Virus record (IMG/VR): IMGVR_UViG_3300024262_003767 | Direction: 5' to 3' (one strand) | DNA from: a virus | DNA: 64,000 nt | Part shown: positions 11,071-62,148 of the stretch, piece by piece | Position numbering within the stretch: the stretch's first letter is position 1 | How the letters are laid out: each line of letters opens with the position of its first letter | Program-made: the position numbers and the translations under genes | The notes under the pieces: generated by a model | Told to the model about the DNA's origin: nothing | Seen by the model: only the letters and a program-made list of their open reading frames with translations | The model's database searches: none

Positions 11071-11120
11071 AATTTTAATGCTTTTTCTTTTATATATAAA
11101 TAAAAATATTTTTTGTTTAA

Positions 11121-11684
11121 ATGACTGAAAATTTAATAATTGTTGATGTACAACCAACATATAACAAATTTATAGATTTTGATATTGGTGAATTTGTTAG
11201 TTGGATAAATAACTCATCTTTTGATGAGGTTTTTTGTTTATATAATGGTCCTGAATTAGGTTATGAAGATGATGAATGGAGAATATCAAATTGGTATTAT
11301 GATTGGGGATTAGATAGGGATATAAGTTTTAGATTTTTTGAAAAATCTTATGGTTGGTTTCGTGATTTTATGGAAGATATGGATGATGATAATATAATTT
11401 CTATTGGTAAATATATGATAGAACACGACATATGGGATTCGAGATATTTTAAAAAGAAAGATATAAAAATTTTAAAAGATAGAGGAATAAGTACAAGGTA
11501 TTTAGGTAAAGAAAGTAGAGTAATGTATATACCTGAATTAAAAGATTACTTATCAAATAATATATATACTAACGAAGAAATTATTATTTGTGGTGGTGGT
11601 GTCGATGAATGTTACAAAGAAGTTAATATGTTATTGGAAATGATGGGATATAAATTTAAAGAAAAAATAAAATTTGTCTATTAA
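11121..11684 (+). CDS. Isochorismatase-like hydrolase (weak)
   Basis: N-terminal IIVDVQPTY and C-terminal IIICGGGVDECYKEV...GYKF resemble isochorismatase-family motifs. Confidence 0.3.
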   Translation: MTENLIIVDVQPTYNKFIDFDIGEFVSWINNSSFDEVFCLYNGPELGYEDDEWRISNWYYDWGLDRDISFRFFEKSYGWFRDFMEDMDDDNIISIGKYMIEHDIWDSRYFKKKDIKILKDRGISTRYLGKESRVMYIPELKDYLSNNIYTNEEIIICGGGVDECYKEVNMLLEMMGYKFKEKIKFVY

Positions 11685-31773: not shown

Positions 31774-33954
31774 TTAATAAAATTGTTTAAATATTTTTGA
31801 GATTTTTTCTTTTGTTATTGGTTTTACAATTTGAAAATCTATATTCTTCTCTACCATATCTGTGGTAGATATTGTAATTATAGTTAACTCTTCATCTATT
31901 TGTTTTAATTTTTCTATGAAATCTAGTATATTAATATTTGATAAACTCATATCTATAAATATTGCATCAATATCACCTAATTTTTCTTCAAGTACATCAA
32001 GTGTTTCCTTTGATGATAGTGTCCATTTAATTTTAACATTCATAGATTTTAACATTATACCTAATAATGAATAGTTTTCAGGTATATCTTCTAATACTAT
32101 CACTTTAATATTAGAAAAATCATACACAATTTTATTAACTTGTTTTGTTTGAATATTTTGAACTTCTTGTAATGGAAGAGTAAAAAAGAATGTGCTTCCT
32201 TCTTTTTGAGTTGAATCTACCCATATATTTCCACCAAGTATATTAACTATACTTTTTGCGATAGATAATCCCAATCCTGTACCTTGGTATTGTTTTTTTG
32301 ATGATGCATCAACTTGCATAAATTTATCAAAAACTATTTCTAATTTATCTTCTGGAATACCAATACCAGTATCTTCAACAAAGAATGTTATAATATTGTC
32401 TTTTATTCTTGTACCAATTCTTATATGTCCACTTTCAGTAAATTTAATTGCATTACTAATCAAATTATATAATACCTGTTTTAATCTAAGAAAATCAGAC
32501 ACTATTATTTCATTATCTTCTCGTTTTTCGAAAGTTAATTTTACCGAATCTATATTCTTTCTAATATTTATATCTATAAAAATTTCTTCTAATTCTTCAA
32601 ATAAATCATTGATTGGGAATCGTTCATATAATAGTTCTAAATTTAATTCACCTGCTTCAATTTTAGCATAATCTAATATGTTATTTAATAATTCTTCTAA
32701 ATGTTTTGCATTAGCATTTATAGTTTTAAGAAATTTTTTATTATTGGTAGTATCAAACTTATCATCTAATAATATATCTGAAAAGCCTATAATCGAATTC
32801 ATTGGCGTTCTTATTTCGTGACTCATATTTGCCAAAAATAGTGACTTTAAAAGATCACTTTTTTCTGCTTCTATTTTTGATTTTTCTAATTCTATTTTAA
32901 TATTTTCTTGTTCTGTAATATCTTTACAATGAATTGCAATATACTCCGTTGAGCCATTATCATTTAAAATGGGATATATGTAATTTTCAAAATATTTATT
33001 ATTTATAACATCAATAAAATGTACTGGTTTGCCTGTAAATATTGCTTCAAGTGTTCTTTTTCTTTTGGGTTCTACACTCTCTTTAGGTAAAATCTGTGAT
33101 ATGTTCACTCCTACTAATTCTTCTCTTGTTTTATTAAAATATTTACAACCTCTATCATTTATTGCTAATAACTCACCTACTTTATTTGTTAAATAAGATG
33201 CACTTAATGTTGAATTTATAATATCTAAGTGTTGTCTCTCCTTTATTTTCATATCAGTAATATCTTGAAATATGGTAACAAAACGATGTGAGTTTTGTTT
33301 ATATGCATCAATTAAAAACCATTTCTGAAAAATATATGAATATTTTTCAAAATGTAAAGTCTTATTATCAGTAAATATTTGAGAATATATCCTTATCCAT
33401 TCACTCGAATCTTTATCTAATATTTCAGTTATATTTTTTCCAATAATTTCTGAATCTAAACCTGTGGTTTCGGTGAACGCTTTATTTATTCTAACAAATT
33501 TATAATCAATAGGTTTGCCACTATTATCAAATATCATTTCATGTAGAGAAAATGCTCGACTCATATTATCAATAATCTTTTCAAGTTCTTCACTTTTAAA
33601 AATATAATCTTTACTTATTTGAGATAAATGTTTTTCATCTTGATATACAACATGTACAAAATTTTCCTCACCTCGATAGATATAATTATATCTCCAACGA
33701 TTAAATTTATCGTCTTTATACTCTTTTAATTCGTGTGTCATACATTCTCCACTATCATACACTTTTAATATTTTATCATAAATACCAAAGTCGATTACTT
33801 TAGAAAAAACATCAACCAATTTTTTATCAATAACATCATATTCAATTCTTTCTACCGTATAAAAATTTTCTGATACTTCGTGAAAATATATATCTTCATC
33901 GATAATTTTATATGTGATAGAAACAAAATCAAAAATTTTTTCAAAATTTTTCAT
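31774..33954 (-). CDS. Cytoplasmic hybrid sensor histidine kinase (PAS domains, HisKA, HATPase_c, C-terminal receiver)
   Basis: H-box MSHEIRTPMNSIIGFSDIL; N, G1/G2 boxes (NLISNAIKFT, DTGIGI, GTGLGLSIAKSIV); receiver with VIVLEDIPEN and DAIFIDMSL; no TM segment. Confidence 0.9.
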   Translation of the reverse strand: MKNFEKIFDFVSITYKIIDEDIYFHEVSENFYTVERIEYDVIDKKLVDVFSKVIDFGIYDKILKVYDSGECMTHELKEYKDDKFNRWRYNYIYRGEENFVHVVYQDEKHLSQISKDYIFKSEELEKIIDNMSRAFSLHEMIFDNSGKPIDYKFVRINKAFTETTGLDSEIIGKNITEILDKDSSEWIRIYSQIFTDNKTLHFEKYSYIFQKWFLIDAYKQNSHRFVTIFQDITDMKIKERQHLDIINSTLSASYLTNKVGELLAINDRGCKYFNKTREELVGVNISQILPKESVEPKRKRTLEAIFTGKPVHFIDVINNKYFENYIYPILNDNGSTEYIAIHCKDITEQENIKIELEKSKIEAEKSDLLKSLFLANMSHEIRTPMNSIIGFSDILLDDKFDTTNNKKFLKTINANAKHLEELLNNILDYAKIEAGELNLELLYERFPINDLFEELEEIFIDINIRKNIDSVKLTFEKREDNEIIVSDFLRLKQVLYNLISNAIKFTESGHIRIGTRIKDNIITFFVEDTGIGIPEDKLEIVFDKFMQVDASSKKQYQGTGLGLSIAKSIVNILGGNIWVDSTQKEGSTFFFTLPLQEVQNIQTKQVNKIVYDFSNIKVIVLEDIPENYSLLGIMLKSMNVKIKWTLSSKETLDVLEEKLGDIDAIFIDMSLSNINILDFIEKLKQIDEELTIITISTTDMVEKNIDFQIVKPITKEKISKIFKQFY

Positions 33955-37323: not shown

Positions 37324-38334
37324 TTACTTAATCTTATTTTCTAAAATATTTTCAATATTTTTAAATTGAGTGTAGGCTATTCTCAACATTTTTATATCAT
37401 TTTCCTTACAATATTTATTTTTAATTTTATCATTTTGTTTCGTATATTTTAATCTTTCTTCACCTCCAAAATGTTCAACAGATTTATAATGTTGTATACC
37501 ATCATATTCCACACACATATTAAGTTCAGGTAAATAAAAATCAAAATGTAAAACTTGTTTATTTTTACATCCATTGAAAGTATATTGAGGTTCAAATTTA
37601 ATATTATTTTCTTTCAAATAATTTAATATTATTTCTTCTCCTTTAGATTGTTTACAACCTGGACAACCAACACCTCGCAAAATAGCGTTTGGTGTTATTT
37701 CCCATATATTATCACATTGATTACATTTTATTTTAACTTTATTATTTGCTTTAATATATTTACCTATAACTTCATATTTATCACCATGTACATTAAAAAC
37801 ATCTTTGATAAATTGTTCAGGTGTTTTTCTTTGTTTTTCACCCTTTTCTTTTGCTGAACATTCTGGACATTCACATTTTGTGTGTGATAAATGATACGGT
37901 TTAATTTTCCATATATTTTCACATATTTTACACCTAACCTTTACTTTTGTATTAGCATTAATATAATCTGATAAAAGTTCATACTTATCACCATAGTTAT
38001 TATTAAATTCTTCTTTAAATTTTTCTGGGGTTTTTCTTTGTTTTAAAACTGCACATTGTTTACAACCTCTACCCCTTAATAATGAATTACCGTTAGTTTT
38101 CCATTTATATCCACATTCATTACATCTAACTTCTATTTCTGATTTAGAATTTATGTAAGGTGATAATGTTGTAAATTTATCACCATAATTTTCCTTTAGT
38201 CTTTTTTGAAACCTTTCTTCTGAAAAACTTTTTGGTGCTAATTCGTGTGTTTCCCTATATTTTTCTTTTAGTTTTTTAAGTATTTTTTCTTTATTTTTTA
38301 GATAATATTGTTTATGCCATTCCTTATTATACAT
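37324..38334 (-). CDS. Homing-endonuclease-like protein: three Zn ribbons and a PD-(D/E)xK-like C-terminus
   Basis: Three copies of C.ECGYKWK.....LRG.GC..C; C-terminal VLHFDFYLPELNMCVEYDGIQH. Confidence 0.5.
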   Translation of the reverse strand: MYNKEWHKQYYLKNKEKILKKLKEKYRETHELAPKSFSEERFQKRLKENYGDKFTTLSPYINSKSEIEVRCNECGYKWKTNGNSLLRGRGCKQCAVLKQRKTPEKFKEEFNNNYGDKYELLSDYINANTKVKVRCKICENIWKIKPYHLSHTKCECPECSAKEKGEKQRKTPEQFIKDVFNVHGDKYEVIGKYIKANNKVKIKCNQCDNIWEITPNAILRGVGCPGCKQSKGEEIILNYLKENNIKFEPQYTFNGCKNKQVLHFDFYLPELNMCVEYDGIQHYKSVEHFGGEERLKYTKQNDKIKNKYCKENDIKMLRIAYTQFKNIENILENKIK

Positions 38335-39402: not shown

Positions 39403-39912
39403 ATGAATTGGTATGTAATACGAGTAGTAACTAGTAAAGAAAAGAAAACAAAAGAATTAATTGAAAAAGAATTGGAACTATATAAATTAGATAATAAAGT
39501 GTCTCAAATTTTGGTTCCAAGTAAGAAAGTGATGCAAATGAGAAATGGTAAAAAATATACTATTGAAAAGAATGATTTTCCAGGATATATTCTCATCGAA
39601 ACGGATAAAGTTGATGAACTAGTTTCAACTATTAAAAATGTTTCAAATGTTTTAGGGTTTTTAGGTGTGACTCACCCAGAACCACTAAGGCAAAGAGAGG
39701 TGGAAACAATCGTTGGTAGACAAAATAACACAATAGTTGAAGATAAATATTTTATTGGTGAAGTTGTAAAAGTCACCGACGGTCCTTTTAACTCATTTGT
39801 TGGTGAAATTATTCTAGTGAATGATAAGAAGAAAGCTGTAAAAGTGAACATTAAAGTTTTTGGACGTGATGTTCCAGTAGATTTGACTTATATTCAGATA
39901 GAAAAGAATTAG
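39403..39912 (+). CDS. nusG: Transcription antitermination factor NusG
   Basis: NGN domain MNWYVIRVVTSKEKK; KOW GEVVKVTDGPFNSFVGEIILVNDKKKAVKVNIKVFGRDVPVDL. Confidence 0.9.
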   Translation: MNWYVIRVVTSKEKKTKELIEKELELYKLDNKVSQILVPSKKVMQMRNGKKYTIEKNDFPGYILIETDKVDELVSTIKNVSNVLGFLGVTHPEPLRQREVETIVGRQNNTIVEDKYFIGEVVKVTDGPFNSFVGEIILVNDKKKAVKVNIKVFGRDVPVDLTYIQIEKN

Positions 39913-39930
39913 AACAAAAACTTTTCTAAA

Positions 39931-39960
39931 CAAAAAAAGAGGCTCACGCCTCTTTTTTTG
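39931..39960. terminator. Bidirectional intrinsic terminator between nusG(+) and the S1 gene(-)
   Basis: AAAAAAAGAGGC-tcac-GCCTCTTTTTTT. Confidence 0.75.
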
Positions 39961-39975
39961 TTTAGAAAAAATGGA

Positions 39976-41106
39976 TTATTCCTCTTTTTCTTTAACTAAG
40001 TTAAGATATATCTTTCTATCATCTTTGATAACAGAAATAACCTTAACTTTTACTTGATCACCTTTCGTTAATTTGGCATTATTCTTCACAAGGTATGTGG
40101 TTTGTATTAACCCCATAGTTTCATAGTCAAGTGAAATTAATGCTCCAAAATTTTTCACATCAATTACTTTTCCTGATAATATTTTACCTACTTTAATTTT
40201 ATCCCAAAGAGACTCTTTTAAAGATTGTGTTAGTATAATCTTTTGACTTTTTGTGATTTCCTTAACATAAAAATCAATTGCCATACCAGGTAGGATTTGG
40301 TGCCATCTATCTTGCCACTCAGTATTTATGTTCATTTTATGAATCATACCTGTAAGACAATTATTGAATTGAACAAATACTCCAAATGGTGTTGTTCCAG
40401 TAACTTCGCCTGCATAAACGACATCATTTTTTAGTTTTTTGATCTCTTCTGGTATAAGTGTCTTAAGATATTTTCTTCGTGAAACAACATAAACCCCCTT
40501 TTCTTGTTGCAATGTCTCTAACATCACATTTAGAGTTTCACCAATAATTGATTCAGGATTTGCGAGTTTATTAACATCAGCTAATGTATTTGGCATAAAC
40601 GCATCGATAGTTACATTATCCATATAAATATCAAGCATATAGCCTGCTGGTATTAATTCCTTCACCTTAGCAACAAGTGATAATCTTTCTTCATAATAAG
40701 TTTTCAATTTATTATGAACATTCATTTTAATTAATTCTGTAATAGATCCTCTTATTAAGAATGGATCGTCTTGAATTGATGTTATTAGTACATCAATTTG
40801 TGAACCAGGCTCTAACCCTATCACTAATTTTCCTTTTGGTGTGTCAACATAAATGTAGTCTTTATACCCAAAATCAACAGTTATTTCTGTATCATCTATA
40901 GATACTATCACACCTTTGATTATTTCCCCTTCTCTTACTTCTCTTAAATCAAGAAAAGTTTTTTCCATCATACGATAAAGATTTTGATAATCTTCAGTAA
41001 GATTAGATAAATCACCTTTTACTTTGATTATTTCTCTATCATTAGTTAGAAACGGAAAAGGATCAGGAAGTGATCCTACATTTACGCCTTCGATTAATTT
41101 CGACAT
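39976..41106 (-). CDS. rpsA: Ribosomal protein S1-like (multi-S1-domain RNA-binding protein)
   Basis: Three to four S1 repeats: GEIIKGVIVSIDD, GEVTGTTPFGVFVQF, GKILSGKVIDVKNFGALISLD...KGDQVKVKVISV. Confidence 0.7.
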   Translation of the reverse strand: MSKLIEGVNVGSLPDPFPFLTNDREIIKVKGDLSNLTEDYQNLYRMMEKTFLDLREVREGEIIKGVIVSIDDTEITVDFGYKDYIYVDTPKGKLVIGLEPGSQIDVLITSIQDDPFLIRGSITELIKMNVHNKLKTYYEERLSLVAKVKELIPAGYMLDIYMDNVTIDAFMPNTLADVNKLANPESIIGETLNVMLETLQQEKGVYVVSRRKYLKTLIPEEIKKLKNDVVYAGEVTGTTPFGVFVQFNNCLTGMIHKMNINTEWQDRWHQILPGMAIDFYVKEITKSQKIILTQSLKESLWDKIKVGKILSGKVIDVKNFGALISLDYETMGLIQTTYLVKNNAKLTKGDQVKVKVISVIKDDRKIYLNLVKEKEE

Positions 41107-46380: not shown

Positions 46381-46914
46381 ATGAAAGTAATAGTAATTAA
46401 TGGTACAGCACAAACTGGAAAGGATAAGTTTGTCTCTTTTTTTAATGAAGTCGCAACCGAACTAAGAGTAAAGAATTATTCATCAATTGATAGAGTTAAA
46501 CAAATAGCCGAAATATGTTTTGGTTGGGACACTAAAAAGAATGATAAATCTAGAAGATTTTTATCAGAAATTAAAAGAATTTGGACTGATTTTAATGATG
46601 GTCCGTTTGAGGTTATTAAAAATCAAATAGATGTTGATATAATATATTCAAAAAATAATAATAAAGATGTAAGTAAAAATATCTATTTTATACATATACG
46701 AGAACCAGAAGAAATAAAAAAAGTTAAAAAATATTACGATATTTTCTGTGTTACACTTTTAATAAAAAAAGATGTAGATTTTATTCCTGATAATGATTCA
46801 GATAAAAATGTTGAAAATTTTGATTATGATTATATTGTAGATAATAATGGTTCAGAAGAAGAATTAAAAATACGAGCCGAAGAATTTCTAACACACATAA
46901 AAAAAACCTTGTAA
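46381..46914 (+). CDS. Deoxynucleoside monophosphate kinase-like (T4 gp1-like)
   Basis: MKVIVINGTAQTGKDKFVSFF resembles T4 dNMP kinase MKLIFLSGVKRSGKDTTADF. Confidence 0.5.
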   Translation: MKVIVINGTAQTGKDKFVSFFNEVATELRVKNYSSIDRVKQIAEICFGWDTKKNDKSRRFLSEIKRIWTDFNDGPFEVIKNQIDVDIIYSKNNNKDVSKNIYFIHIREPEEIKKVKKYYDIFCVTLLIKKDVDFIPDNDSDKNVENFDYDYIVDNNGSEEELKIRAEEFLTHIKKTL

Positions 46915-46935
46915 GAAATTACAAGGTTTTTTTAT
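46900..46935. terminator. Bidirectional intrinsic terminator between the dNMP-kinase-like gene(+) and clpC(-)
   Basis: AAAAAACCTTGTAA-gaaa-TTACAAGGTTTTTTT, overlapping the stop codon. Confidence 0.7.
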
Positions 46936-46955: not shown

Positions 46956-49472
46956 TTAGGCTTCTAAAAGTGGAGTTTCATCTTTTGGTGGTAATTCTTT
47001 ACTATTCAAATTAACAATAGTAATCTCACCATCTTTACTTCTAAGTGAAACTTTATCACCAATTTTAATTTCACCATTGAGAATAGCATCTGTTAGAGTA
47101 TCTTCAATGTGTCGTTGAATTGCTCTTTTCAATGGTCTTGCACCATATTCAGCATCCCATCCTTCTTCAAATAAGAAGTCTTTAAGTGACTTTGTGATAT
47201 TTACAACATAACCAATATCTTTAAGTCTATCGAGAGTTGTTTTAATTTCAAGGTCAATAATTCTGAAAATGTTGTCTTTTGAAAGAGCGTTGAACATTAT
47301 AAGTTCATCAACTCTATTAAGAAATTCTGGTGCAAATTTCTTTTTCAATTCTTTATCAATAACAGCGTTCTTCTTATCTTGAATGTTTTTGTTGGTGGCA
47401 TTTGTTTGAAATCCCATACCTGTACCAAAATCTTTAAGTTGTCTTGAACCTGTATTCGATGTCATTATGATAATTGCGTTTTTAAAATTAACTCTTCTAC
47501 CATAACTATCAGTAAGAATTCCATCATCAAGAACTTGTAGAAGTATATTAAATACGTCTGGATGCGCTTTTTCCATTTCATCAAGAAGAACAATTGAATA
47601 TGGTTTTCTTCTGATGGCTTCAGTTAATTCACCACCATCATCATAACCAACATATCCTGGAGGCGCTCCAATCAATTTTGAAACTGAATGTTTTTCCATA
47701 TATTCAGACATATCAATTCTAATGAGGTTTTCTTCTGAACCAAAGAGTTCTTTTGCTAGAACCTTTGCTAAGTAAGTTTTACCGACACCTGTAGCACCTA
47801 AGAACATAAATGTTCCGACAGGTTTTTTAGGATCTTTGATACCAATTCTACTACGTTTGATTGAACGAACAATTTTATCAACAGCATCATCTTGTCCAAT
47901 AACAATATTTTTCATTTTAGTTCCAAGATTTCTCAATTTGTTTGATTCATCATCATCAACAGCATCAAGTGGGATTTTGGTCATCATTGAAACAACTTCA
48001 GCAATATCTTCTTTTCCAACGATTTCACGATTTTCGTCCAATTTTTCGTTCCATTCCTCTTTCAATTTTTTCAATTGTTCTGTAAGGTTTCTTTCTTTAT
48101 CTCTCCAAGAAGCAGCTTTTTCAAATTTCTGTTCGTCAACACATTCAGTTTTCTTTTTCTCGGCTTCTGAAATTTTACTTTCAAGAATAGAAATAGCTTT
48201 AGGTTGATTTGAATTTGAATCTACATGAACTTTGGCACCAGCTTCATCCAAAGCGTCAATTGCTTTATCTGGCATAAATCTATCATTCATATATTTATCA
48301 GTCAATTTTACACAAGCTTCAATTGCTTCATCTGTGTACACGACTTTGTGATAATCCTCATATCTAACTTTGAGTTGTTTAAGGATTTCAATAGTTTCTT
48401 CAATGGTAGTAGGTTCTACCACAACTTTTTGAAATCTTCTTTCTAATGCACCATCTTTTTCAATATGTTTTCTATATTCTTCGAGAGTAGTTGCACCAAT
48501 ACATTGGAATGTTCCTCTTGCTAATGCTGGTTTTAACATATTAGATGCATCAAGTGAACCTTGTGCGCTACCAGCACCAATAATTGTATGAATTTCATCA
48601 ATAAAAAGTATAATGTTTGATGTTTCTTCAATTTCTTTGATAATTCCTCTTAAACGAGATTCAAATTCGCCACGATATTTTGTTCCTGCAACAAGGGCAC
48701 CCATATTAAGGGTGAAAATTCTTTTATCTTTAATGTTGTTTGGCACTTTACCATCAACAATTCGTTGTGCTAAACCTTCAACAATTGCAGATTTGCCAAC
48801 TCCAGGCTCACCTATAAGAATAGGATTATTTTTCTTTCTACGTGAAAGAATTTGACTTATTCTTTTAATCTCAATTTTTCTACCAACAACTGGATCGAGA
48901 GAACCTTCTTTTGCTTTTTTGGTAATATCTTCACCAAATTGTTCAATAAGTTTAGGTTTCTTATTTTTATTTGATGCTGTTGTATCACTATGATGCATTT
49001 CTGGATCATCCCAATCTGCACTATTACTTATTCCAGTAACTTTTTCGTGTAATTTTTTAATTATCTCACCTTCATCAATTTTTGAAAACATATCATTTAA
49101 AATATTATTTTTAGTATTTAAGAGTGAAAGTAATACTACATCAGTATCAACATATTTGACATCCATTTCATCAATTATTCCAACACAATTTTCAAGTATG
49201 TCCGTAACTTCTTGTGATAATTGTACTTTATCTTTTCTCTCTGCCAATTGAATATGCTCCATTTGGTTTCTCATTACCAAAGCATCTTGAATAGTTTTTT
49301 TGATTGTTGGAATACGAATATCAATTTCTTGAAGAACTTGATAAGCACGATAATTTTCATCCTCAATTAGAGCCAAAAACAAGTGTTCTGGTTCAATTTC
49401 AGATGATTTATATTGCAACGCAATCGTCTTACTATTCTTAATCACATTATCTACGTCTTTGTTAAAGTTCAT
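46956..49472 (-). CDS. clpC: ClpC-type AAA+ unfoldase (Clp_N, two AAA modules, UVR-like M-domain)
   Basis: Clp_N repeats ([16 protein letters not shown]); Walker [19 protein letters not shown] and GATGVGKT; UVR motif [11 protein letters not shown]; sensor-2 [10 protein letters not shown]. Confidence 0.9.
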
Positions 49473-49538
49473 AATTAATTTTTTTAGTTATAATTTATAT
49501 ATTTAATTTTCTTTATAGGAGTTTTCCTCTTTTGTTTA

Positions 49539-49760
49539 TTAAAATAAATTGAAAATATCAATGTTTTTTGTTTCTCTCTCAAATATCATACCAAGATAAA
49601 ATAATGGAAAAAAGATAATAGATGCTACCCAAATATATATTCCTCGTACAAACCAAGCTGGTTTGATAAATGGTATCGCCCAATTTTTATATAAGTCCCA
49701 ATCTTCTTTCACAAAATTTAGATAAATATATAACATATATTTTGCTATAAATATTTTCAT
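49539..49760 (-). CDS. Small membrane protein
   Basis: Hydrophobic WVASIIFFPLFYLGMIF. Confidence 0.3.
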   Translation of the reverse strand: MKIFIAKYMLYIYLNFVKEDWDLYKNWAIPFIKPAWFVRGIYIWVASIIFFPLFYLGMIFERETKNIDIFNLF

Positions 49761-49777
49761 TCGTTTTTTATTATTTT

Positions 49778-50080
49778 TTAATCTTTCTCAATCGTGAGTG
49801 TTAATCCTTGTTCTTCAAGTGCGGATTTAAAAGGTTTTAATTTATCTTTTGAACCAGTTTTTAAGATACTCGCACCTTTCATATGAACTGTCCAAGCTGT
49901 GTTTTCAGCTTTTTCTGGACTAAAACTCATAATTGATATCAGACATAAAATTACATGATCAAAAGAATTGACTTCATCATTCCATAAAATCAATTTATAG
50001 ACTTTATCATCCGATGGTTCAATACCCGCTTTACTGAGTATTTCTTCTAATGTTTTTGTTATTTCTTTTGTGTCGCTCAT
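49778..50080 (-). CDS. clpS: ClpS adaptor protein
   Basis: YKLILWNDEVNSFDHVILCLISIM...AENTAWTVHMKGASIL matches ClpS (YKVILLNDDYTPMEFV...ATQLML.VH..G). Confidence 0.85.
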   Translation of the reverse strand: MSDTKEITKTLEEILSKAGIEPSDDKVYKLILWNDEVNSFDHVILCLISIMSFSPEKAENTAWTVHMKGASILKTGSKDKLKPFKSALEEQGLTLTIEKD

Positions 50081-51375
50081 ATTCCTAATTCCTCTTTATA
50101 TAGTTTAACAGTATTAAAGTTTCCAGTATATTTTCCTTCACTATCAGACAACTTTACACAATCTCTCCAAACTTTCATTCCTTCAGGTAAGGCTTCAGAC
50201 ATCTTAATTACCATATTTAAAGGTTTTGCCTTTTTTAAAGTTTCCATAAAATAACCACCATTTGGATTTGGTATCGATTCCCAATTAAATTGGTTATGAT
50301 AATCTTCATCATAGATACCATTTTGTGAAACCAAAACAACATCGTTTGATAGCCAAGTACCTATACCATAGGAAGATAATATTTTATTTCTCACACAATT
50401 TTCAATTGTTTTAATTTTTTCTATACTATTTATAGAGTCAGAAAATACAATTGTTTTTGGAATCATACCATTAGGCATTTTAATACCTTTATTTATGTAA
50501 TGTTTGATAGTTTTTTCTGCGAATTCAACAGGTTCACCAGAATCTTGACGAACACCGTCAAATAATTTTGAATAAAATAAATCAAAACCTTCAAAGAAAA
50601 TATCTGTTGTATATGTATCAGAAAGTGCAATTCCTAATGCTCCTTTATAAGCATCTACCCAACGACCCATTCCTACACGATTAGCCATCATCACACCGTA
50701 TTTAGCAGCGTGAAACATAAACCATTCGTGTGCCTGAGTTCCAATTGCTTTAATACCATATTTACGAGCAAACATCACATTGGATGTACCAACGATTGTT
50801 TTTGGTGCAACTTTCAAAAATTCTTCAATAACTCTACCTTGGATAAATTTTGAAAATCTTCTGCGGGTTCCAAATTCAGATAATGAAATTCCAAGTTCAG
50901 ATAATTGTTTAAATTTTTCATCCCAAATTTCCATTGACTTTTCTAAGTCAACTTCTTCACCTGAGAAAAGGAAGAATAATTCTGATATTAAAGCCATTAA
51001 TTGAACTTCCCAAAATATAGTTTTGTGCCAAAAACCTTCAATTTCTATTTCTAATACACCATTTTTTTGAGTAACTTTAACTTCATTAGGATCATATTGA
51101 TAACTCCTAAGATACATATAATAGGAAATATCAAAGAATGGAAGTTTACTTTTCAAATGTTCTTCAATTTCTTTGGTAAATTTTAAATTTTTGAAATGAG
51201 CAATCTGTTCTTTTAACTCGGTAGCAAAACCTTTTGGAAATTTACGGGTTTTATCTCTGAGTATGAACTTATACTTAACCTTAGCGTTAGGATAGTGTTT
51301 TAGTATGGCAAATTGCATGAAATACTTATAGGCGTCCTGATCATCAAATTCGGTAATTATTGGTTTAAATCTCAT
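50077..51375 (-). CDS. pncB: Nicotinate phosphoribosyltransferase (PncB/NAPRT)
   Basis: Colinear with E. coli PncB: DDQDAYKYFMQFAILKHY, LPFFDISYYMYLRSYQYDPNEVKVTQKNGVLEIEIEGFWHKTIFWEVQLMALISE, EFGTRRRFS, VGTSNVMFARKYGIKAIGTQAHEWF. Initially mistaken for NAMPT. Confidence 0.9.
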   Translation of the reverse strand: MRFKPIITEFDDQDAYKYFMQFAILKHYPNAKVKYKFILRDKTRKFPKGFATELKEQIAHFKNLKFTKEIEEHLKSKLPFFDISYYMYLRSYQYDPNEVKVTQKNGVLEIEIEGFWHKTIFWEVQLMALISELFFLFSGEEVDLEKSMEIWDEKFKQLSELGISLSEFGTRRRFSKFIQGRVIEEFLKVAPKTIVGTSNVMFARKYGIKAIGTQAHEWFMFHAAKYGVMMANRVGMGRWVDAYKGALGIALSDTYTTDIFFEGFDLFYSKLFDGVRQDSGEPVEFAEKTIKHYINKGIKMPNGMIPKTIVFSDSINSIEKIKTIENCVRNKILSSYGIGTWLSNDVVLVSQNGIYDEDYHNQFNWESIPNPNGGYFMETLKKAKPLNMVIKMSEALPEGMKVWRDCVKLSDSEGKYTGNFNTVKLYKEELGI

Positions 51376-51376
51376 A

Positions 51377-52078
51377 TTATAAAAATTTTCCTATTGTTTC
51401 TGATTCAATTTCAATATCTTTTACTGAATTAATAACAAGTATATTATAATCGATTACTAACATTTCAATATATTTATCTAATTCTTCTTCTGTTCCTAAC
51501 CCTTTTGTTGCGGCAAGATTTAAGATAACTTGAAATCCAGCATTGGACAAATCCTTTAAAGTTTCACCTACACAGTAATTAAGTGCTAATCCACCAACAA
51601 TAATTGTTGTTATATTGTGATAATTATAAAATTCAATCAACCCAGTCGAAATTTTACCTTCTTGATCGTGATAAACACTTGTGTAAGGGTGTAGGTGTGG
51701 ATCGACTCCCTTATTTACAATAAAGTTAAAATCTTCAATTTTACCAAGTTCATCAAGAATTTCCGAACCAAATGTTCCTGATTCACAATGCAAATTCCAA
51801 AACATATCAACATTTTTGTGTCCAACTATAGGTGTGAATTGAGGATTTTCTTCAGTTGCTACCCATAACGCATTTTTTGAGTGCATATCTCTTGATATGG
51901 TTTTAACAATTCCTATTAAATTTTGTTTTGCTAATTCTTTACCAATTAGGTGTCCATCAGGTACAGGTAGTTCATTAGGACAGAGTGGAGTAAATCCCTT
52001 TTGAGGGTCAACGTTGTGACTTGCTGTTCTTTCGCTAATCACTCTAATCTTATTCGTATTTTCAAAACTTATATTCAT
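51377..52078 (-). CDS. pncA: Nicotinamidase (PncA, isochorismatase family)
   Basis: VDPQKGF (Asp), NLHCESG, KGVDP (Lys), IIVGGLALNYCV (Cys), in PncA order. Confidence 0.8.
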   Translation of the reverse strand: MNISFENTNKIRVISERTASHNVDPQKGFTPLCPNELPVPDGHLIGKELAKQNLIGIVKTISRDMHSKNALWVATEENPQFTPIVGHKNVDMFWNLHCESGTFGSEILDELGKIEDFNFIVNKGVDPHLHPYTSVYHDQEGKISTGLIEFYNYHNITTIIVGGLALNYCVGETLKDLSNAGFQVILNLAATKGLGTEEELDKYIEMLVIDYNILVINSVKDIEIESETIGKFL

Positions 52079-53033
52079 AATATTTTATTTATTTTTATGT
52101 TACAAAAGTAATACTTTTTTTAATAATAAAAAAATTGTATTGTTAAAGAATAACAATACAATTTTTATTCGTGAATTCTTTTAAAGTTTTCAATATATTT
52201 AGACATATTTACGGAGCCTATAATATTTTGAGTGTGAATTATACATATTGGTAATTTTTCATTATTATCAATACAGTAATCACACAACCATTTGACACAC
52301 TCCATACCTGTTTTTTCGGTGTATTTTGAGTAATCAACATCATCTTGATTTAATAAATATTGATAATGTTCATCTGCTAAATCGTGATCAAAACTAATCA
52401 TTTGAGGTAAACCATTTAACTCAATACATTTAATAAATTGATCGTAAGACCTAACAATAACCCAATCGAGATTTATATAGTCCATATTTTGTGTATAGTA
52501 ATATGCGTCCTCATAATTTCCATGAGGGGAATATGGAACTCTTTCATCATCTAAAAACAAATTGTACATAATTTTACCTTTTAAGTGTGCTAAATTAATA
52601 AAAAAAATTGGAATAAAAAATTACAGTTTCTGTAACATAGTTATTATTTCGGTTAATGTTTCATCGTAATTGAGAATTCTTTTGTGTAAACTCTCATATC
52701 TTTCGTGGAAAAAGACATCACGATTTTTTACTGTAATATATGTGTCGTCTTTTTTGAAATTTATCTTAAATTGGTAGTTTCTATTATCATACTCAATATT
52801 ATGAATAACTTCATTATATTGAAAATCTCTCCACGTTCTACTAAATCTAGTTTTAATAACAAATTTGCATGGTTCATTTTTAAAAACCTTATTTAGATTT
52901 TCCAGTTCAATACGTATATGTCGTCCTCTTTGGTTATACATATTATATTCATCTATTTTTGTTATCATAATCACTATATATAAAAAAAACCTCCCAAAAA
53001 ATTGAGAGGTTTTTTAAGATTAAACATTAAAGT

Positions 53034-54539
53034 TTACTTCTTATCAGGTTTTTCAGTTTTTTTGGTTTTTGCTTTTTCTTCAAGCAATTTAACCATATCT
53101 GCATTACCTTCTAAGAATCCAGGCATATTCTGACCAACCATTTTAAAAGCGTCATCCATTGGAGGAACAGATTTTAAAAGGTTTGTCAACCAATTAGAAG
53201 TAGATGATCCAGCACCTTCACCACCATTACCAGTATCCCAAACTGTGATGTTATCAAATTTAATTTCTTTGATAGCTTCAACTTGAGTTCTAATAATTTC
53301 TGGAAGTTTGTCTGCAATCATCATTTGGACAGCCTTATCAGGATCACCACCCGCTGCACTTACATAAGCGGCAAAACCTTCGGCTTGTTTTGTCATTTGT
53401 TCAAACGTACCACGAGCCTGAGCATCCATCATAAAGAATACTCCATCAGCCTTACCTTTTTCAACTCTACGAATTCTTTCAGCTTCAGCCTCAGCATCTA
53501 CTTCAATTTTTTCTTTTTGAATCTGTGCAGGTACAACAATATCAGCGAATTTTTGAGAACGTTCTCTTTCTGCTCTCGCATCTTCAGCGATTTTCTCAGC
53601 TTTGTATGACTCTTCAAGAGCGTTTGCTGATTTTGTTTTTTGAGCAACGACAATTTTACGATCAGCCTCAGCTTCGGCTTCTCTCCTACCAGCAATAGAA
53701 TTTGCGATTTCAATAGCCGCTTTATTTTCACCATCAACAGCAGTTGAGTTAAAGGCTGCAGTATCAATTCTCATATTCTTATCTGCTTCTTTTTCACCAA
53801 TAACGGCTCTTGAATTAGCAGATGCGACTTTAATTCTTTGCTCTCTTTGAGCCTCAGCGACACCAATATCCCCATCTCTATCTTTCTCAGCAACTGATTT
53901 CTTTGCTTCGTTAATAGCCTGAGCCGCAGCTTCTTTACCAAGAGCCTCAATATAACCAGATTCATCATCAATATCTTTAATATTAACGTTGATAAGTTTC
54001 AAACCAACTTTCTTAAGTTCGTTTTCAACATTATCTTGAATCTTACTCAAGAAAGCGTCACGGTTAGCGTTGATTTCTTCAATAGTAAGAGTTGCGATAA
54101 TCGCCCTCATTTGACCAAAAATAATATCCTGAGCCAACGCTACGATTTGTGTATCTTGAAATCCCAACATTCTTTCAGCGGCATTAATTTTGAATTCATC
54201 TTCTGATGAAATCGCAACGGTGTACGTTGAAGGAACATTTACACGAATATTCTGATTCGAAAGTGCAGATTTCAAATCAACTTCAAAAGACATAGGTTTC
54301 AGAGATAAGAACTTGTATTCCTGAATGATAGGCCAAACAAATACACCACCTCCGTGATATACTCTGGCGCTGGCGTGTCCTGACCGTCCTTGTGAGTCGG
54401 CTTTTCCCTTCACACGCCCATATACAACTAAAAGTTGATCAGAAGGGCACCTTTTATATCTTGCTTTAAAAGTAAAGAAGAATGCGAAAAAGGCAATCGC
54501 TGCTAATCCAATGATAATAGCAATCGAAAATGATACCAT
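53034..54539 (-). CDS. SPFH/band-7 flotillin-like protein (YqiK type) with a long Ala/Glu-rich coiled-coil tail
   Basis: N-terminal TM helix, SPFH core, EA-rich repeats AEAEADRKIVVAQ..., 501 aa. Confidence 0.85.
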   Translation of the reverse strand: MVSFSIAIIIGLAAIAFFAFFFTFKARYKRCPSDQLLVVYGRVKGKADSQGRSGHASARVYHGGGVFVWPIIQEYKFLSLKPMSFEVDLKSALSNQNIRVNVPSTYTVAISSEDEFKINAAERMLGFQDTQIVALAQDIIFGQMRAIIATLTIEEINANRDAFLSKIQDNVENELKKVGLKLINVNIKDIDDESGYIEALGKEAAAQAINEAKKSVAEKDRDGDIGVAEAQREQRIKVASANSRAVIGEKEADKNMRIDTAAFNSTAVDGENKAAIEIANSIAGRREAEAEADRKIVVAQKTKSANALEESYKAEKIAEDARAERERSQKFADIVVPAQIQKEKIEVDAEAEAERIRRVEKGKADGVFFMMDAQARGTFEQMTKQAEGFAAYVSAAGGDPDKAVQMMIADKLPEIIRTQVEAIKEIKFDNITVWDTGNGGEGAGSSTSNWLTNLLKSVPPMDDAFKMVGQNMPGFLEGNADMVKLLEEKAKTKKTEKPDKK

Positions 54540-55720: not shown

Positions 55721-56407
55721 TTATATTACGTTTATTTCATTAGCCATACAAACTTCACCATAATCTTTGATAAGTTTGTCCATATCATCAAATGAGATAT
55801 ATGCAAATCCTTTTTTACCCCATTCTCTACCCCAAGAATTTTTAATTCTTATTAGTTTCTTTTTAACATTAACACCATCTAATAAATATGCGTGTCCGCC
55901 CATTTTATTTCCTGTTGGAGTTATAATACCTTCACTATTTGGAAAAAACATATCATAGTACCACCAAGTACCAACAACAACAGGACCTAATGTTAATAAT
56001 GCGTTTACTGTTGTGTCAATATCCCAAGCCCAATTATATCCATTAATATACCCTGCAGATTGTAAAACTTTAGCACCAGCTCTAACACTAGTTCCATCAT
56101 AATCTTCACCAGGCCAACGATCTATCTTTTGTGCTTCATTATATAAATATTCTGTATCATAAGGTGCTACTCCACCTTTTCTACTTGCTTTTTGTGTTAT
56201 TGGACCAGAGGCTAACCAATGTATCCAACTAAATGCAACACAATGAGGTTTATAACCTTGATTTCCCCACCATCCATTTGTCCACCAATATTTATAATCT
56301 ATACCTGGTAATTTTTTAGGTAGCATTGAACTAATTAGGAATTGATGATCCCTATCATCAGGTTTTATAAATCTACCTAATCTTGATTTTAATTGATTTT
56401 CATTCAT
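55721..56407 (-). CDS. Papain-like cysteine peptidase (C1 family)
   Basis: QGYKPHCVAFSWIH (Cys region, cf. QGSCGSCWAFS), GGHAYLLDG (His), NSWGREWGKKGF (Asn/Trp). Confidence 0.75.
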   Translation of the reverse strand: MNENQLKSRLGRFIKPDDRDHQFLISSMLPKKLPGIDYKYWWTNGWWGNQGYKPHCVAFSWIHWLASGPITQKASRKGGVAPYDTEYLYNEAQKIDRWPGEDYDGTSVRAGAKVLQSAGYINGYNWAWDIDTTVNALLTLGPVVVGTWWYYDMFFPNSEGIITPTGNKMGGHAYLLDGVNVKKKLIRIKNSWGREWGKKGFAYISFDDMDKLIKDYGEVCMANEINVI

Positions 56408-56431
56408 AGAATGTGATTTTTATTCTATATA

Positions 56432-57583
56432 TTAAAATTCAGAATTATAAATGGATTTGTAAAATTTACCCCAATTAAAATACTTATCCATTGTTTGAAA
56501 TATATCATCAAGAGTTATCTTATGAATAAGGTGTTCCATACTCCAACATTCAGGTTCAATATATTTATTGACATTTGCGTGTCTTAATATGTCGTTCTTT
56601 TTTAGTTTAACTAAAAAATTATCTTTAATAATATCAAATCTATCTTGTGTCAAATAAATTTCTTTATTACTTAATACTTTACCTATTTCTTCTTGCAAAT
56701 GCTCTACATTCTTATTTGAAGTCTCAGTTAAGATTGTAACAACTGAAGATGTATTATTTAATTTTTGGTTAATACATTGAACATAATATGCTAATCCTGA
56801 TTTTTCTCTAATTTCTTGATATAGTGGAGAATTTAATCCAGAACCTAACATACTACAAGTATAACTAATTAATGGAAAATCTTCAGTTGCAACATTTGAA
56901 ATATTTATAATTGATTGTTTATTTTTATATTCGTTAATTAACTCTAACGGCACTAAACCTTCGGGTATAATGATATCATCATTAGTTCTAATTCCAAATG
57001 TTTCCGTTTCGATAAATTTGAATGGGGTATTTATAATACTATCTCTAAAATCAACATTAAAATCAAAATCATTGTTTTTAGATACATTAATTATCATTGT
57101 AGGTTTCTTATAGAAAAGATTTAAATATTCTTTACAATCATCTAAAGTGAAATTTTCTATATCACACCTTAATCCTATTGGGTGATAATAACCAAACATT
57201 TTTCTATTTAAATTTAGAAAATGGTTATTCATCTGTTCATTAAATGAATCTTTATATTCTTCCAAAACAATTTTTTTCTCATTTTCTAATTCTTCTTCTG
57301 TTGGATCATAAGATAGAATCAATTCTAGAAATTCATATTTATATTTATTAACATATTCATCCAATCCATTCATATAAAAAACTACTTCTGTATTAGATGT
57401 ATATGCGTTCCAAGCGACACCATATCTTTGAAAATCATCTTGTAAATGTTCAAATGACTTACAAATTAAATGCTCACAGATATGGGAGGCTCCAAATGTT
57501 CCAACTTTTTCTACCATTGTAGATCCATCAAATATTATATAAAATGAGGATAATTCTATTTCACTTTTAATGTTTTTTATCAT
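56432..57583 (-). CDS. M16 (pitrilysin) family metallopeptidase-like protein
   Basis: Inverted zincin HICEH (HxxEH) followed by GVAWNAYTSNTEVVFY (cf. NAFTSREHTVYY). Confidence 0.7.
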   Translation of the reverse strand: MIKNIKSEIELSSFYIIFDGSTMVEKVGTFGASHICEHLICKSFEHLQDDFQRYGVAWNAYTSNTEVVFYMNGLDEYVNKYKYEFLELILSYDPTEEELENEKKIVLEEYKDSFNEQMNNHFLNLNRKMFGYYHPIGLRCDIENFTLDDCKEYLNLFYKKPTMIINVSKNNDFDFNVDFRDSIINTPFKFIETETFGIRTNDDIIIPEGLVPLELINEYKNKQSIINISNVATEDFPLISYTCSMLGSGLNSPLYQEIREKSGLAYYVQCINQKLNNTSSVVTILTETSNKNVEHLQEEIGKVLSNKEIYLTQDRFDIIKDNFLVKLKKNDILRHANVNKYIEPECWSMEHLIHKITLDDIFQTMDKYFNWGKFYKSIYNSEF

Positions 57584-61100: not shown

Positions 61101-61279
61101 AAATTGATAAATGTATATTCATTAAGAATATCTATTTCTTCAACTCTAAAGTCAGTTTTACTTTTTATATCCCAAACCAAAAATCCATGTTTATCAACAT
61201 CTTCACCAAATGATTGTTGAACTGGACTACCAGGGTAACCAATAGTTGGTATTTTTTTCTTTATTTTTATTTTAGACAT
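58112..61279 (-). CDS. sbcC: Fusion ORF: C-terminal half of SbcD/Mre11 (about 190 aa, starting ..IGYPGSPVQQSFGED) joined in frame to SbcC/Rad50-type ATPase (Walker A, coiled coil, CxxC hook, signature/Walker B)
   Basis: IGYPGSPVQQSFGED matches SbcD VRYCGSPIPLSFDE just after motif V; Rad50 N-lobe IEKFWFDNFRVFG...GENQQGKTT; zinc hook SSFCPACG; C-terminal IIILDEIMGKL. Confidence 0.8.
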   Translation of the reverse strand: MSKIKIKKKIPTIGYPGSPVQQSFGEDVDKHGFLVWDIKSKTDFRVEEIDILNEYTFINLYINEGEDYDNLTLHTNERIGNFPEFKVHWKDLSSNINTENERKIRNFIKNKYDSTKVKFDKTYIYTDMVSSKMLSETLDLTNVETQRKIFKEYLEEQGYKKNDIDEILKIDDLINDRLEIKEQKTNIEWKIEKFWFDNFRVFGDKNKIDWKDLNGIIQIHGENQQGKTTILDVITYILYGTTTTTVKREKHGDNRYINNKRKLNKCSGGAVLDIDGEKITILRKTERDENRSGEIKSCSTNVDYYDTEEIKEKNKQTGERKTQTQKKLDLILGDFKDFVRISLTNADNLNELLSADRSVFMDSIIRDAGYDIFEKKQNEYKDYKKDLNIEKIIVDVSQSEQEISEIVNVIEEKKNTIKEQKKLIIDFKLELDSENSLRDNLIKKLNKIDESMINFDLNISNNTLSNYNQKIDDNKVQISIYDRDINELPSKFEPDKLNNLKDKLKLTNDKISKIKEEISSVKTNNNEIDTKVDKVKQKLREFRDKEINNLKDKINIKEKEISNVESEKLSIINSKIISIKDEIKKNELEKINLENKIRNLKKDGSNLKSRNDEKLQEIEEFKNSSFCPACGRDYDESTPDHLEHIQEKIKTLEHDIEINTIKIKDLIEEYKDLTPIIPELEEKIQTLRLKRDKLTSGEYDEEILSELNVLQDTKYLENEILMIESLIERLKNNDLSINEELKNKFDKGKMLLKKLDKDKNDNLSVIKNLENELKSLNIESIEDDIQHEEKIKENYELRKDKVNLKEKLTLNIDNYLLKIKEIEQTINNFKMYESQIEENKQTQLDIDDKDVYILELKSNIDEKYIVISEIKKEIALLEKSIEDIQSRIEKFIQQKKQEELMKEYQRCISRDGIPTYLLKKSIHLINKELNDLLTNVDFTLFFNDDLILKLSMDDRLDVSQNAIESSGKERTFCALTLKIALRQINVKSRPNFIILDEIMGKLYEKSVMEFIELLDEIKNKIDKIIIIEHVHPINYDGLITVKKNDNLISSLITDF

Positions 61280-62148
61280 TTATTTAATTTTATTTTAAAT
61301 TCACCATTTAGAATATTGGTTTCCCAGAACCTTAAAATATTAAAATTATTAGATTTTGAAAGTTCATCTTTAAAAATATCATTTTCAATATTTAACATCT
61401 GAGTCTTATTTAATTCATTTATATTAAATATGTTGGGGTTAGCATGCCAATAATCACCATCTGCCTCAATAATTATATTTTTATCTATTAACATAAAATC
61501 ATATATTTTATATCTTAATTTACCATCAAGTTTATAGTATATTCTAAATTGTGGTTTATATTTTATTGATTTTTCATCTAAAAAATCACCTATAATTTTT
61601 TCTATTTTAGTTTTACTTTTTTTAAATAACCCTTTATGTGCGATTTCCGTCATACTTAAACCATATCTTTCAATGCAAGTATTATTAATTTTTTTTCTAC
61701 ATTCATCGTCTTTCCAATTATGTGTTGTACCATATCGTTCTAAGAACGTATTTTTTCTTTTTATTTTTGATTCAGGTTTCCATCCAAATGGAAATTCATT
61801 ATTTTGATTATATTCTAATTTAGATTTCCTAACTTTATTTTTATAATTTTCATCACTCCACAATTTTTTAGTTATTTTTGAATGTAAATCTTTACTTTCT
61901 TGTGTTTTTACCTTACCAAACATTGGATTTTTTTCACCAACATATATAATTTTTTTATGCTCATCACAACATTTCCTTGAGCAATATTTTTTATCATCAG
62001 ATACTAATACTTCAATATCAACTCCACAATTTATACAATAAATAATTTTTCTTTCAACCTTAGATTTCTTATAATCTTTATATTGACATTTCCTTGAACA
62101 ATATTTCTTATTATTATGTTTCTCACCACAAACTATACATTTTTTCAT
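61267..62148 (-). CDS. Homing-endonuclease-like protein (Zn ribbons, NUMOD3, PD-(D/E)xK-like C-terminus) inserted within sbcD
   Basis: CIVCGEKHNNKKYCSRKC, CINCG...CSRKC; NUMOD3-like GEKNPMFGKVKTQESKDLHSKITKK; C-terminal YKIYDFMLIDKNIIIEADGDYWH. Confidence 0.55.
   Translation of the reverse strand: MKKCIVCGEKHNNKKYCSRKCQYKDYKKSKVERKIIYCINCGVDIEVLVSDDKKYCSRKCCDEHKKIIYVGEKNPMFGKVKTQESKDLHSKITKKLWSDENYKNKVRKSKLEYNQNNEFPFGWKPESKIKRKNTFLERYGTTHNWKDDECRKKINNTCIERYGLSMTEIAHKGLFKKSKTKIEKIIGDFLDEKSIKYKPQFRIYYKLDGKLRYKIYDFMLIDKNIIIEADGDYWHANPNIFNINELNKTQMLNIENDIFKDELSKSNNFNILRFWETNILNGEFKIKLNKCLK

Follow-up and report, generated by a model that had tools for sequence, protein, structure and literature searches.

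A conserved clpS–small membrane protein–clpC cassette in a huge phage suggests a phage-encoded Clp degradation system

A ClpS adaptor of the N-degron type, a small hydrophobic protein and a ClpC-type unfoldase are encoded side by side in the viral record IMGVR_UViG_3300024262_003767, of which a stretch of 64 kb (hereafter the window) was analysed. The cassette lies at 46956–50080 on the minus strand, and on balance it is probably part of a phage-owned ClpS–ClpC–ClpP degradation system, with ClpP most probably encoded elsewhere in the genome. It comprises clpS (100 amino acids (aa), 49778–50080; open reading frame (ORF) list and PF02617), a gene for a small hydrophobic predicted membrane protein of 73 aa in the interval between clpS and clpC (49539–49760; ORF, family and AlphaFold2 (AF2) model), and clpC, which encodes a class I Hsp100/Clp ATPase of 838 aa (46956–49472; ORF list, Pfam, PDB and PHROG 4871). 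A sequence-only reading of the stretch had described these three ORFs together with pncB and pncA, and all five were found exactly where it had placed them, throughout on the minus strand. It had further assigned a full-length ClpC (Clp_N, two AAA+ modules and a UVR-like M-domain), a ClpS adaptor and a small membrane protein, and these assignments were borne out by the Pfam and structure alignments and the family analysis presented below.

The ClpC protein contains the Pfam domains Clp_N (43.7 bits), AAA, AAA_lid_9, UVR, AAA_2 (E = 1.4e-67) and ClpB_D2-small, and matches the phage ClpA/C family PHROG 4871 with E = 2.6e-260. Its best solved relative is Bacillus subtilis ClpC (3j3s, E = 5.8e-235), which aligns in one collinear stretch over residues 9–819, whereas ClpB and Hsp104 structures align only as two split stretches. 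The N-domain (residues 9–140) aligns with the N-terminal domain of B. subtilis ClpC, and Clp_N repeat 1 (aa 16–65, 49278–49427; PF02861), the expected docking domain for ClpS, was detected there. In the first AAA+ module (D1), the Walker A motif GEPGVGKS (aa 221–228, 48789–48812) aligns to GEPGVGKT of B. subtilis ClpC, and it is followed by the pore loop KYRGEFE (aa 265–271, 48660–48680) and the Walker B motif ILFIDE (aa 288–293, 48594–48611). A short M-domain of the UVR type (aa 431–463, 48084–48182; PF02151, E = 9e-8) comes next, and the 11-residue motif cited in the sequence-only reading (aa 450–460, 48093–48125) falls inside this Pfam match. The second module (D2) carries Walker A GATGVGKT (aa 559–566, 47775–47798), the pore loop GYVGY (aa 606–610, 47643–47657), Walker B VLLDEMEK (aa 628–635, 47568–47591) and the sensor-2/Arg motif GARPLKR (aa 777–783, 47124–47144). 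These D1 and D2 motifs were located by structure alignment and motif coordinates, and all lie on the minus strand.

The tripeptide through which Clp ATPases dock on ClpP had been singled out as a check on the locus, and it is present. The D2 loop of ten residues contains G-MGF (aa 685–688, 47409–47420), with MGF at aa 686–688 aligned to VGF of B. subtilis ClpC. In 16 clade members, with identities as low as about 60%, the tripeptide reads (M/I)GF; ClpC of Bacteroidota has (M/V)GF, with an identical MGF in Acetobacteroides (P0084). Because of this loop, the intact motifs and the short UVR M-domain, the protein is classified from its sequence as a ClpP-coupled unfoldase of the ClpC type and not as a ClpB-type disaggregase. 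The long coiled-coil M-domain and the missing ClpP loop that mark ClpB and Hsp104 are not found in it, and the disaggregase activity that had been offered as an option is thus disfavoured. More broadly, ClpC could work free of any peptidase as a stand-alone unfoldase, remodeller or disaggregase that assists virion assembly, ejects or unfolds packaged proteins or keeps the cell alive, with ClpS as a mere modulator. Clp ATPases of phage G were found in its virion proteome, a role as translocases or as chaperones of assembly has been suggested for jumbo-phage ClpA and ClpX (Iyer et al. 2021, PMC7824862), and the top-scoring NCBIfam model for the window protein is ClpB, albeit below its cut-off (896 vs 1232; ClpA likewise, 797 vs 993), with no ClpC-specific equivalog reported among the NCBIfam models. 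This role is nevertheless quite unlikely. Within the clade, where identities fall to about 59%, the docking tripeptide is strictly conserved, a pattern that speaks for selection to bind ClpP; moreover, the long DnaK-recruiting coiled coil of ClpB is replaced by the short UVR M-domain, and ClpS is an adaptor of proteolysis.

About ten ClpC homologues of the same clade have lengths of 1177–1200 aa and contain domains of the Hom_end/Hom_end_hint or LAGLIDADG type (P0014, P0025, P0028, P0044, P0056, P0057, P0063, P0065–P0067 and P0074; locus L084, 8001–11546). Their length and homing-endonuclease domains therefore identify them as intein-interrupted clpC genes. The clpC gene of the window has no intein.

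The adaptor was identified by PF02617 (E = 1.6e-16; 60.3 bits, cut-off 23) and by ClpS structures in the PDB (E about 1e-4), and NCBIfam likewise returned a ClpS match. In alignment with Escherichia coli ClpS, the residues of the N-degron pocket are N34 and D35 (49976–49981, minus strand) and H66 (49883–49885, minus strand); they equal the E. coli pocket residues and are invariant across 22 clade sequences. The protein has an N-terminal extension of about 25 residues, as well as an acidic residue 79 and Lys85, where E. coli has E79/K84. No L/F-transferase or other enzyme that writes N-degrons was detected by Pfam among the window ORFs scanned. Upstream of the cassette, a papain-like C1 peptidase and an M16 metallopeptidase are encoded in a syntenic position (55721–57583, minus strand); the HxxEH motif of the M16 protein is intact (HICEH, aa 34–38), and its gene directly abuts clpS in the related locus L195. 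These two peptidases could, speculatively, create new N-termini that serve ClpS as N-degrons.

The cassette is conserved as a unit. Eight independent loci were compared, namely, the window, L003, L082, L083, L084, L109, L110 and L195, with ClpC identities of 59–64% where measured, and ClpS, an ORF of 68–92 aa and ClpC are consecutive and often overlapping in all eight. A second class of huge-phage ClpC has only 668–722 aa and lacks the Clp_N domain; examples are found in L007–L013, L019, L036, L038, L044 and L048 (IMG/VR contigs of 46–476 kb) and in LR756502 and LR745206. ClpS adjoins the Clp_N-bearing phage ClpC in 8/8 loci, whereas no ClpS occurs within 10 kb of the N-less ClpC in any of 11 loci. 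This contrast argues, indirectly but coherently, that ClpS would act through the N-domain of the phage ClpC. In one contig (L044/L100), ClpP is encoded about 13 kb from an N-less ClpC.

ClpP is encoded by relatives of the window phage. The complete megaphages LR756504 and LR756502 have ClpP proteins 52–56% identical to that of E. coli, with GxSMG and MIHQP intact. A contig of 121,682 bp contains both the cassette (L109; ClpC at about 33.6–36.1 kb) and ClpP at about 89.3–90.0 kb (L092), and the 501,337-bp contig IMGVR_UViG_3300044712_000732 likewise combines the L003 cassette with a ClpP (P0250). The latter contig was missed by a single-sequence ClpP scan of IMG/VR and was recovered through a protein database and a 41-mer search, in which an exact 41-mer from the P0250 gene, occurring once in IMG/VR, placed the gene on the L003 contig. 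The ClpPs of the phage clade are about 70–72% identical to those of Bacteroidota. Since relatives with the cassette and related megaphages encode ClpP, a phage-encoded ClpS–ClpC–ClpP pathway is the parsimonious model.

From homology we infer how such a pathway would operate, including the physical contacts among ClpS, ClpC and ClpP, the substrates and any part played by the small protein. The N34/D35/H66 pocket of ClpS would bind proteins with a bulky hydrophobic N-terminal residue, and the loaded adaptor would dock on Clp_N of the hexameric phage ClpC. ClpC, using ATP, would unfold the substrate, thread it via the KYR and GYVG pore loops and pass it to a ClpP tetradecamer attached through the MGF loops. 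This ClpP is most probably phage-encoded elsewhere, and docking to a roughly 70%-identical host ClpP may also occur. Selected host or phage proteins would thereby be degraded during a long and complex infection cycle.

Several observations weigh against this model. No ClpP is encoded in the 64-kb window, as the sequence-only reading had noted: the ClpP proteins of E. coli and B. subtilis, used as tblastn queries, gave only matches with E > 2, and no CLP_protease match was found by Pfam among about 60 window ORFs scanned. In L092, a gene lies 1.2 kb upstream of ClpP; its homologue in the window (4706–5215) is not followed by ClpP, and the window phage could therefore lack the peptidase. Within ClpC, Clp_N repeat 2 is degenerate and below the Pfam threshold, and the equivalents of E106/H107 are D/V. 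The ClpS pocket departs from that of E. coli by D36 to E (window phage only) and by T38 to N and M40 to F (clade-wide), and its specificity may therefore differ. Three remote homologues of the small protein (27–34% identity; L193, 107–343; L194, 1086–1325; L196, 460–705) adjoin NusG or glycosyltransferase genes at loci with no clpS, clpC or other Clp genes; the small protein may therefore not belong functionally to the Clp system. Finally, no capsid, portal or terminase was found among the window ORFs scanned.

The missing ClpP bears on the proposal of the sequence-only reading that host ClpP is redirected. The phage would then supply only adaptor and unfoldase, thereby reprogramming host proteolysis toward substrates of its own choosing. 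Besides the lack of ClpP in the window and the vacant position where one relative has it, the (M/I/V)GF docking loop is common to phage and Bacteroidota ClpC, MGF of Acetobacteroides included, and an identity of about 70% between phage-clade and Bacteroidota ClpP makes cross-docking plausible; phage ClpS feeding host ClpAP has also been proposed (Iyer et al. 2021, PMC7824862). However, every related genome or long contig in which both could be checked encodes its own ClpP, and the window covers only 64 kb of a genome whose size probably exceeds 450 kb. Redirection of host ClpP is thus not the most economical reading, and we regard it as a possible but less probable arrangement, with docking to host ClpP retained as an option. 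Inferring from position that ClpP lies just outside the window was also attempted and failed: the gene at 4706–5215 is followed by unrelated genes, and synteny is broken there. The phage-encoded pathway remains the preferred model.

That the DNA is viral and not bacterial was a premise of the sequence-only reading, and it held. A 614-aa orphan ORF (orf614) located 3 kb downstream of ClpC matches only six huge-phage genomes at no more than 41% identity, namely, LR756500–504 and LR745206, which are 'uncultured phage' genomes of 462–735 kb. A block composed of genes for an SbcCD-like protein, the M16 peptidase, pncA, pncB, ClpS, the small ORF, ClpC, orf614, an S1 protein, NusG and a radical SAM protein is syntenic with contigs of 501 kb from IMG/VR, 531 and 102 kb from ENA, and 235, 122, 83 and 77 kb from JGI. 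Close relatives are represented by the ENA contigs ERZ27249621 k141_682913 and ERZ27297473 k141_239578, the latter of 531 kb. The GC content at third codon positions of the Clp genes (0.17–0.21) is close to that of the flanking phage-specific genes. At least six free-standing homing-endonuclease-like genes (HNH, GIY-YIG and NUMOD3/endonuclease I; 1422–2321(+), 5658–6491(−), 7839–8660(−), 18364–19362(−), 37324–38334(−) and 61267–62148(−)) and many orphan ORFs occur in the 64 kb. The DNA is therefore well supported, on gene content and synteny, as that of a phage, presumably of a huge-phage clade that includes genomes of 460–735 kb.

The opposite possibility is that the stretch is bacterial chromosomal DNA (a mis-binned metagenome-assembled genome or a contaminant) in which clpS and clpC are simply housekeeping genes. 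A 'cellular' look is shared by the Clp proteins, pncAB, NusG, the S1 protein, the deformylase and the histidine kinase, and no capsid or terminase gene and no tRNAs were found in the window; the only related match is a weak one to a 'virion structural protein' PHROG (Laminin_G). Against this stand the orphan neighbours that match only huge phages, the synteny with IMG/VR contigs as long as 501 kb, the homing endonucleases, the inteins in ClpC of relatives, the fact that the closest bacterial clpS genes never adjoin clpC, and a ClpC in a clade of its own, which shares only about 58% identity with any sequence from Bacteroidota. A bacterial origin is thus extremely unlikely. A megablast comparison of 20 kb of the window with 50,697 GenBank phage records returned no match, and the genome itself is therefore absent from the GenBank phages.

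The accessory genes of the window are typical of megaphages and include CCA-adding enzyme, Tpt1, deformylase, thymidine kinase and hybrid histidine kinase genes. Cell-like functions in gene expression and RNA repair are represented by peptide deformylase (5217–5651(−)), Tpt1/KptA RNA 2'-phosphotransferase (8676–9188(−)), a 288-aa class II aminoacyl-tRNA synthetase-like core (17501–18367(+)), CCA-adding enzyme (28206–29465(−)), and NusG with a 376-aa S1-domain protein (39403–41106). The hybrid sensor kinase has 726 aa with the order PAS-HisKA-HATPase_c-REC (31774–33954(−)) and matches several PHROG families. The product of a gene at 10510–11160(−) weakly resembles the anti-CBASS phosphodiesterase Acb1, with a score (23.5 bits) below the cut-off of 27. 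In the relative L110, a gene for a 404-aa OrfB_IS605/Cas12f-like TnpB lies beside NusG (18552–18586, running off the locus end). An interpretation of the cassette as an anti-phage defence system was rejected; PADLOC returned generic AAA+ matches for ClpC and none for ClpS or the small ORF.

The closest relatives of the window ClpC (58–90% identity) are all metagenomic, and the first named ones, at 50–53%, all belong to Bacteroidota. The closest named ClpS proteins (40–47%) are also from Bacteroidota, with Sphingobacteriaceae as the nearest cellular lineage. In none of the 80 closest bacterial clpS loci (Sphingobacteriaceae) does clpC, the small ORF or pncAB lie less than 6 kb from clpS, and the clpS of Pedobacter stands alone between divergent genes; the cassette would therefore have been assembled in phages and not captured as an operon. 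In a neighbour-joining distance tree of ClpC (659 shared columns, no outgroup), the clade of the window protein is monophyletic and deep, with a mean identity of 72% internally and about 58% to Bacteroidota. The N-less phage ClpCs are interleaved with Bacteroidota ClpCs in this unrooted tree, at 67% mean identity, a pattern suggesting that they were captured separately and more recently. A phylogeny had been called for to identify the donor lineage; the present tree, built without an outgroup, does not settle the ultimate donor of the ClpC clade. The host of the phage is probably a member of Bacteroidota, because the closest named ClpC, ClpS and ClpP are all from this phylum.

The small ORF between clpS and clpC is a real gene, and its membrane location is predicted. 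It has no match in Pfam, NCBIfam, PHROGs or PADLOC, and an exhaustive phmmer search defined a family of 67 cluster representatives (16 at E ≤ 1e-10), nearly all of 66–107 aa and aligning from residue 1. The start that gives 73 aa is backed by the N-terminus MKxFIAKY conserved in homologues, whereas the gene caller chose a start giving 65 aa. Conserved features of the family are an N-terminal helix with K-x-F-I-A-K-Y-x-L-Y-I-Y, a K-x-W..P-F-I-K segment and a hydrophobic helix with an invariant Pro. The protein has one strong hydrophobic segment (aa 41–59; best Kyte–Doolittle 19-mer score 2.1), and its AF2 model, with a predicted local distance difference test score of 89, shows helices at 2–17, 26–49 and 51–72 with a kink at the invariant P52. 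Family members with at least 36% identity always lie within the cassette. An exclusive role as a Clp accessory is weakened by the remote members described above, and a dedicated Clp role is possible. The protein might even be a Clp partner of a new kind, specific to phages, that serves as membrane anchor, adaptor or gate and tethers ClpS–ClpC(–ClpP) to the inner membrane, thereby allowing FtsH-like extraction or degradation of membrane-associated host proteins, with the syntenic M16 and C1 peptidases perhaps exposing N-degrons; we consider this unlikely. If true, the protein would belong to a class of ClpC regulators not described before, and the phage would have a means of directing proteolysis to a particular place in the cell.

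The cassette appears to form the distal part of a larger transcription unit. Two strong terminator-like hairpins enclose seven minus-strand genes: orf117, an orphan of 117 aa and the first gene (52621–52974); next to it, a gene with a cREC_REC domain (52165–52569; ORF list, Pfam); a pncA-like nicotinamidase gene with an isochorismatase fold (51377–52078; Pfam, NCBIfam); pncB for nicotinate phosphoribosyltransferase (50077–51375; ORF list, Pfam, and NCBIfam above cut-off); clpS; the small ORF; and clpC. The upstream hairpin (52984–53015, minus strand; 14-bp stem and T-run) resembles an intrinsic terminator that ends a flotillin gene, and the downstream one (46900–46933; 15-bp stem, T-runs on both strands) is bidirectional and separates the clpC stop from a convergent gene of the deoxynucleoside monophosphate kinase type. 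A hairpin scan found nothing comparable inside the putative unit, and it looks as if clpS, the small ORF and clpC are cotranscribed with pncA and pncB in this genome. A scan for sigma-70 promoters was uninformative in the AT-rich DNA (48 sites found, 53 expected). The AT-rich 66-nt spacer before clpC (49472–49539) is the only sizeable gap within the clpS–clpC cassette, unlike L003, L084 and L195, where the cassette genes overlap or abut, and an internal promoter upstream of clpC is possible in the window phage.

The contiguity with pncAB claimed in the sequence-only reading stands for the window, in which the genes are co-oriented and apparently form one unit, and the link is only loosely conserved in relatives. 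pncB directly adjoins ClpS in three of the eight loci (window, L084 and L110), is separated from it by one small ORF in L083 and L109 and by three genes in L003, and pncAB is missing altogether from L082 and L195. A 4-nt overlap between the two genes had also been reported and is present as ATGA, with the direction reversed: pncB lies upstream, so it is the stop codon of pncB that overlaps the start of clpS. pncB is in this way translationally coupled to clpS in the window, a linkage that is inconstant among relatives. The pncA and pncB genes, which follow the cREC_REC-domain gene (50077–52569(−) with that gene included), constitute a phage nicotinamide adenine dinucleotide (NAD+) salvage module at the entry of the Preiss–Handler pathway, and this module may counter NAD+-depleting host defences. 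Immediately 5' of the putative operon lies the gene for the flotillin/SPFH (Band_7) protein of 501 aa (53034–54539(−)), and a second Band_7 gene adjoins ClpP in the relative L111 (6787–8631).

These results suggest that a deep huge-phage clade, probably infecting Bacteroidota, keeps a probably full pathway of regulated degradation, with N-recognin, unfoldase and, in relatives, peptidase. The cassette adds to the picture of megaphages with cell-like proteostasis and expression machinery. Its three small-to-medium genes offer a ready experimental system for identifying proteins that a phage wants destroyed, such as defence proteins, host regulators or its own early proteins, and nature has set up a test of adaptor dependence in the phages with Clp_N plus ClpS and those with N-less ClpC. 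In practical terms the impact is modest, since Clp genes of phages have already been documented and the function of the cassette is deduced from homology.

Among known systems, the ClpC of B. subtilis (PDB 3J3S/3PXI) and those of Bacteroidota share the collinear architecture of the window protein, namely, Clp_N, D1, short UVR M-domain, D2 with ClpP loop and D2-small. Compared with B. subtilis ClpC, the window protein is phage-encoded, belongs to a separate deep clade, has a docking tripeptide that starts with Met and carries GKS in the D1 Walker A motif, as in Bacteroidota, and not GKT; no MecA or McsB adaptor is evident in the window, and ClpS is adjacent instead. The ClpS–ClpA(P) system of E. 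coli and the ClpS–ClpC(P) systems of cyanobacteria, plastids and mycobacteria are alike in the N34/D35/H66 adaptor, the extension of about 25 residues and a Clp_N double-ring ATPase. As in the clpS–clpA operon of E. coli, clpS precedes the ATPase gene in the phage cassette, which differs in the conserved small membrane-protein gene between them and in pocket-lining positions. The nearest cellular ClpS lineage, Sphingobacteriaceae, has no such operon, and the phage cassette was therefore assembled independently.

Components of Clp proteolysis have been reported from several huge phages. The 490-kb Agrobacterium phage Atu_ph07 encodes ClpS, ClpA, ClpB, ClpX and ClpP (Attai et al. 2018, PMC6102473), and jumbo phages with ClpS, ClpP, ClpA and ClpX have been described, with ClpS proposed to feed host ClpAP (Iyer et al. 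2021, PMC7824862). The roles proposed for jumbo-phage Clp proteins are host takeover, assembly and aggregate clearance (PMC6102473, PMC7824862). Like the window phage, Atu_ph07 is a huge phage with ClpS and an ATPase of the ClpA/C type, and it also has ClpP; its Clp genes are scattered (gp292 ClpA, gp676 ClpP and gp708 ClpS) and proteobacterial in type, whereas the window has a tight, clade-conserved ClpC-type cassette with Bacteroidota affinity and an extra small ORF. The N-less ClpCs of LR756502, LR745206 and the IMG/VR loci L007–L048 share a D1-M-D2 core of about 58% identity and occur with ClpP in the same genomes, but lack Clp_N and a nearby ClpS. Bacillus phage G, with ClpXP in its virion proteome (PMC12484599), is also a megaphage with an ATPase–ClpP pair, and differs in its single-ring ClpX, the adjacency of the two genes and the lack of ClpS (PMC12484599). 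ClpA is a near-core gene of the 'Moraphages', and PHROGs already holds a phage ClpA/C family (phrog_4871) and a ClpS-like family. No paper describing a clpS–small ORF–clpC cassette was found in a literature search that was incomplete. Clp proteolysis in huge phages is thus already known, and the present locus is set apart by its tightly conserved cassette, by a ClpC-type ATPase with Bacteroidota affinity, and by an uncharacterised small hydrophobic protein, a predicted membrane protein that is conserved and is the only unexplored element of the locus.

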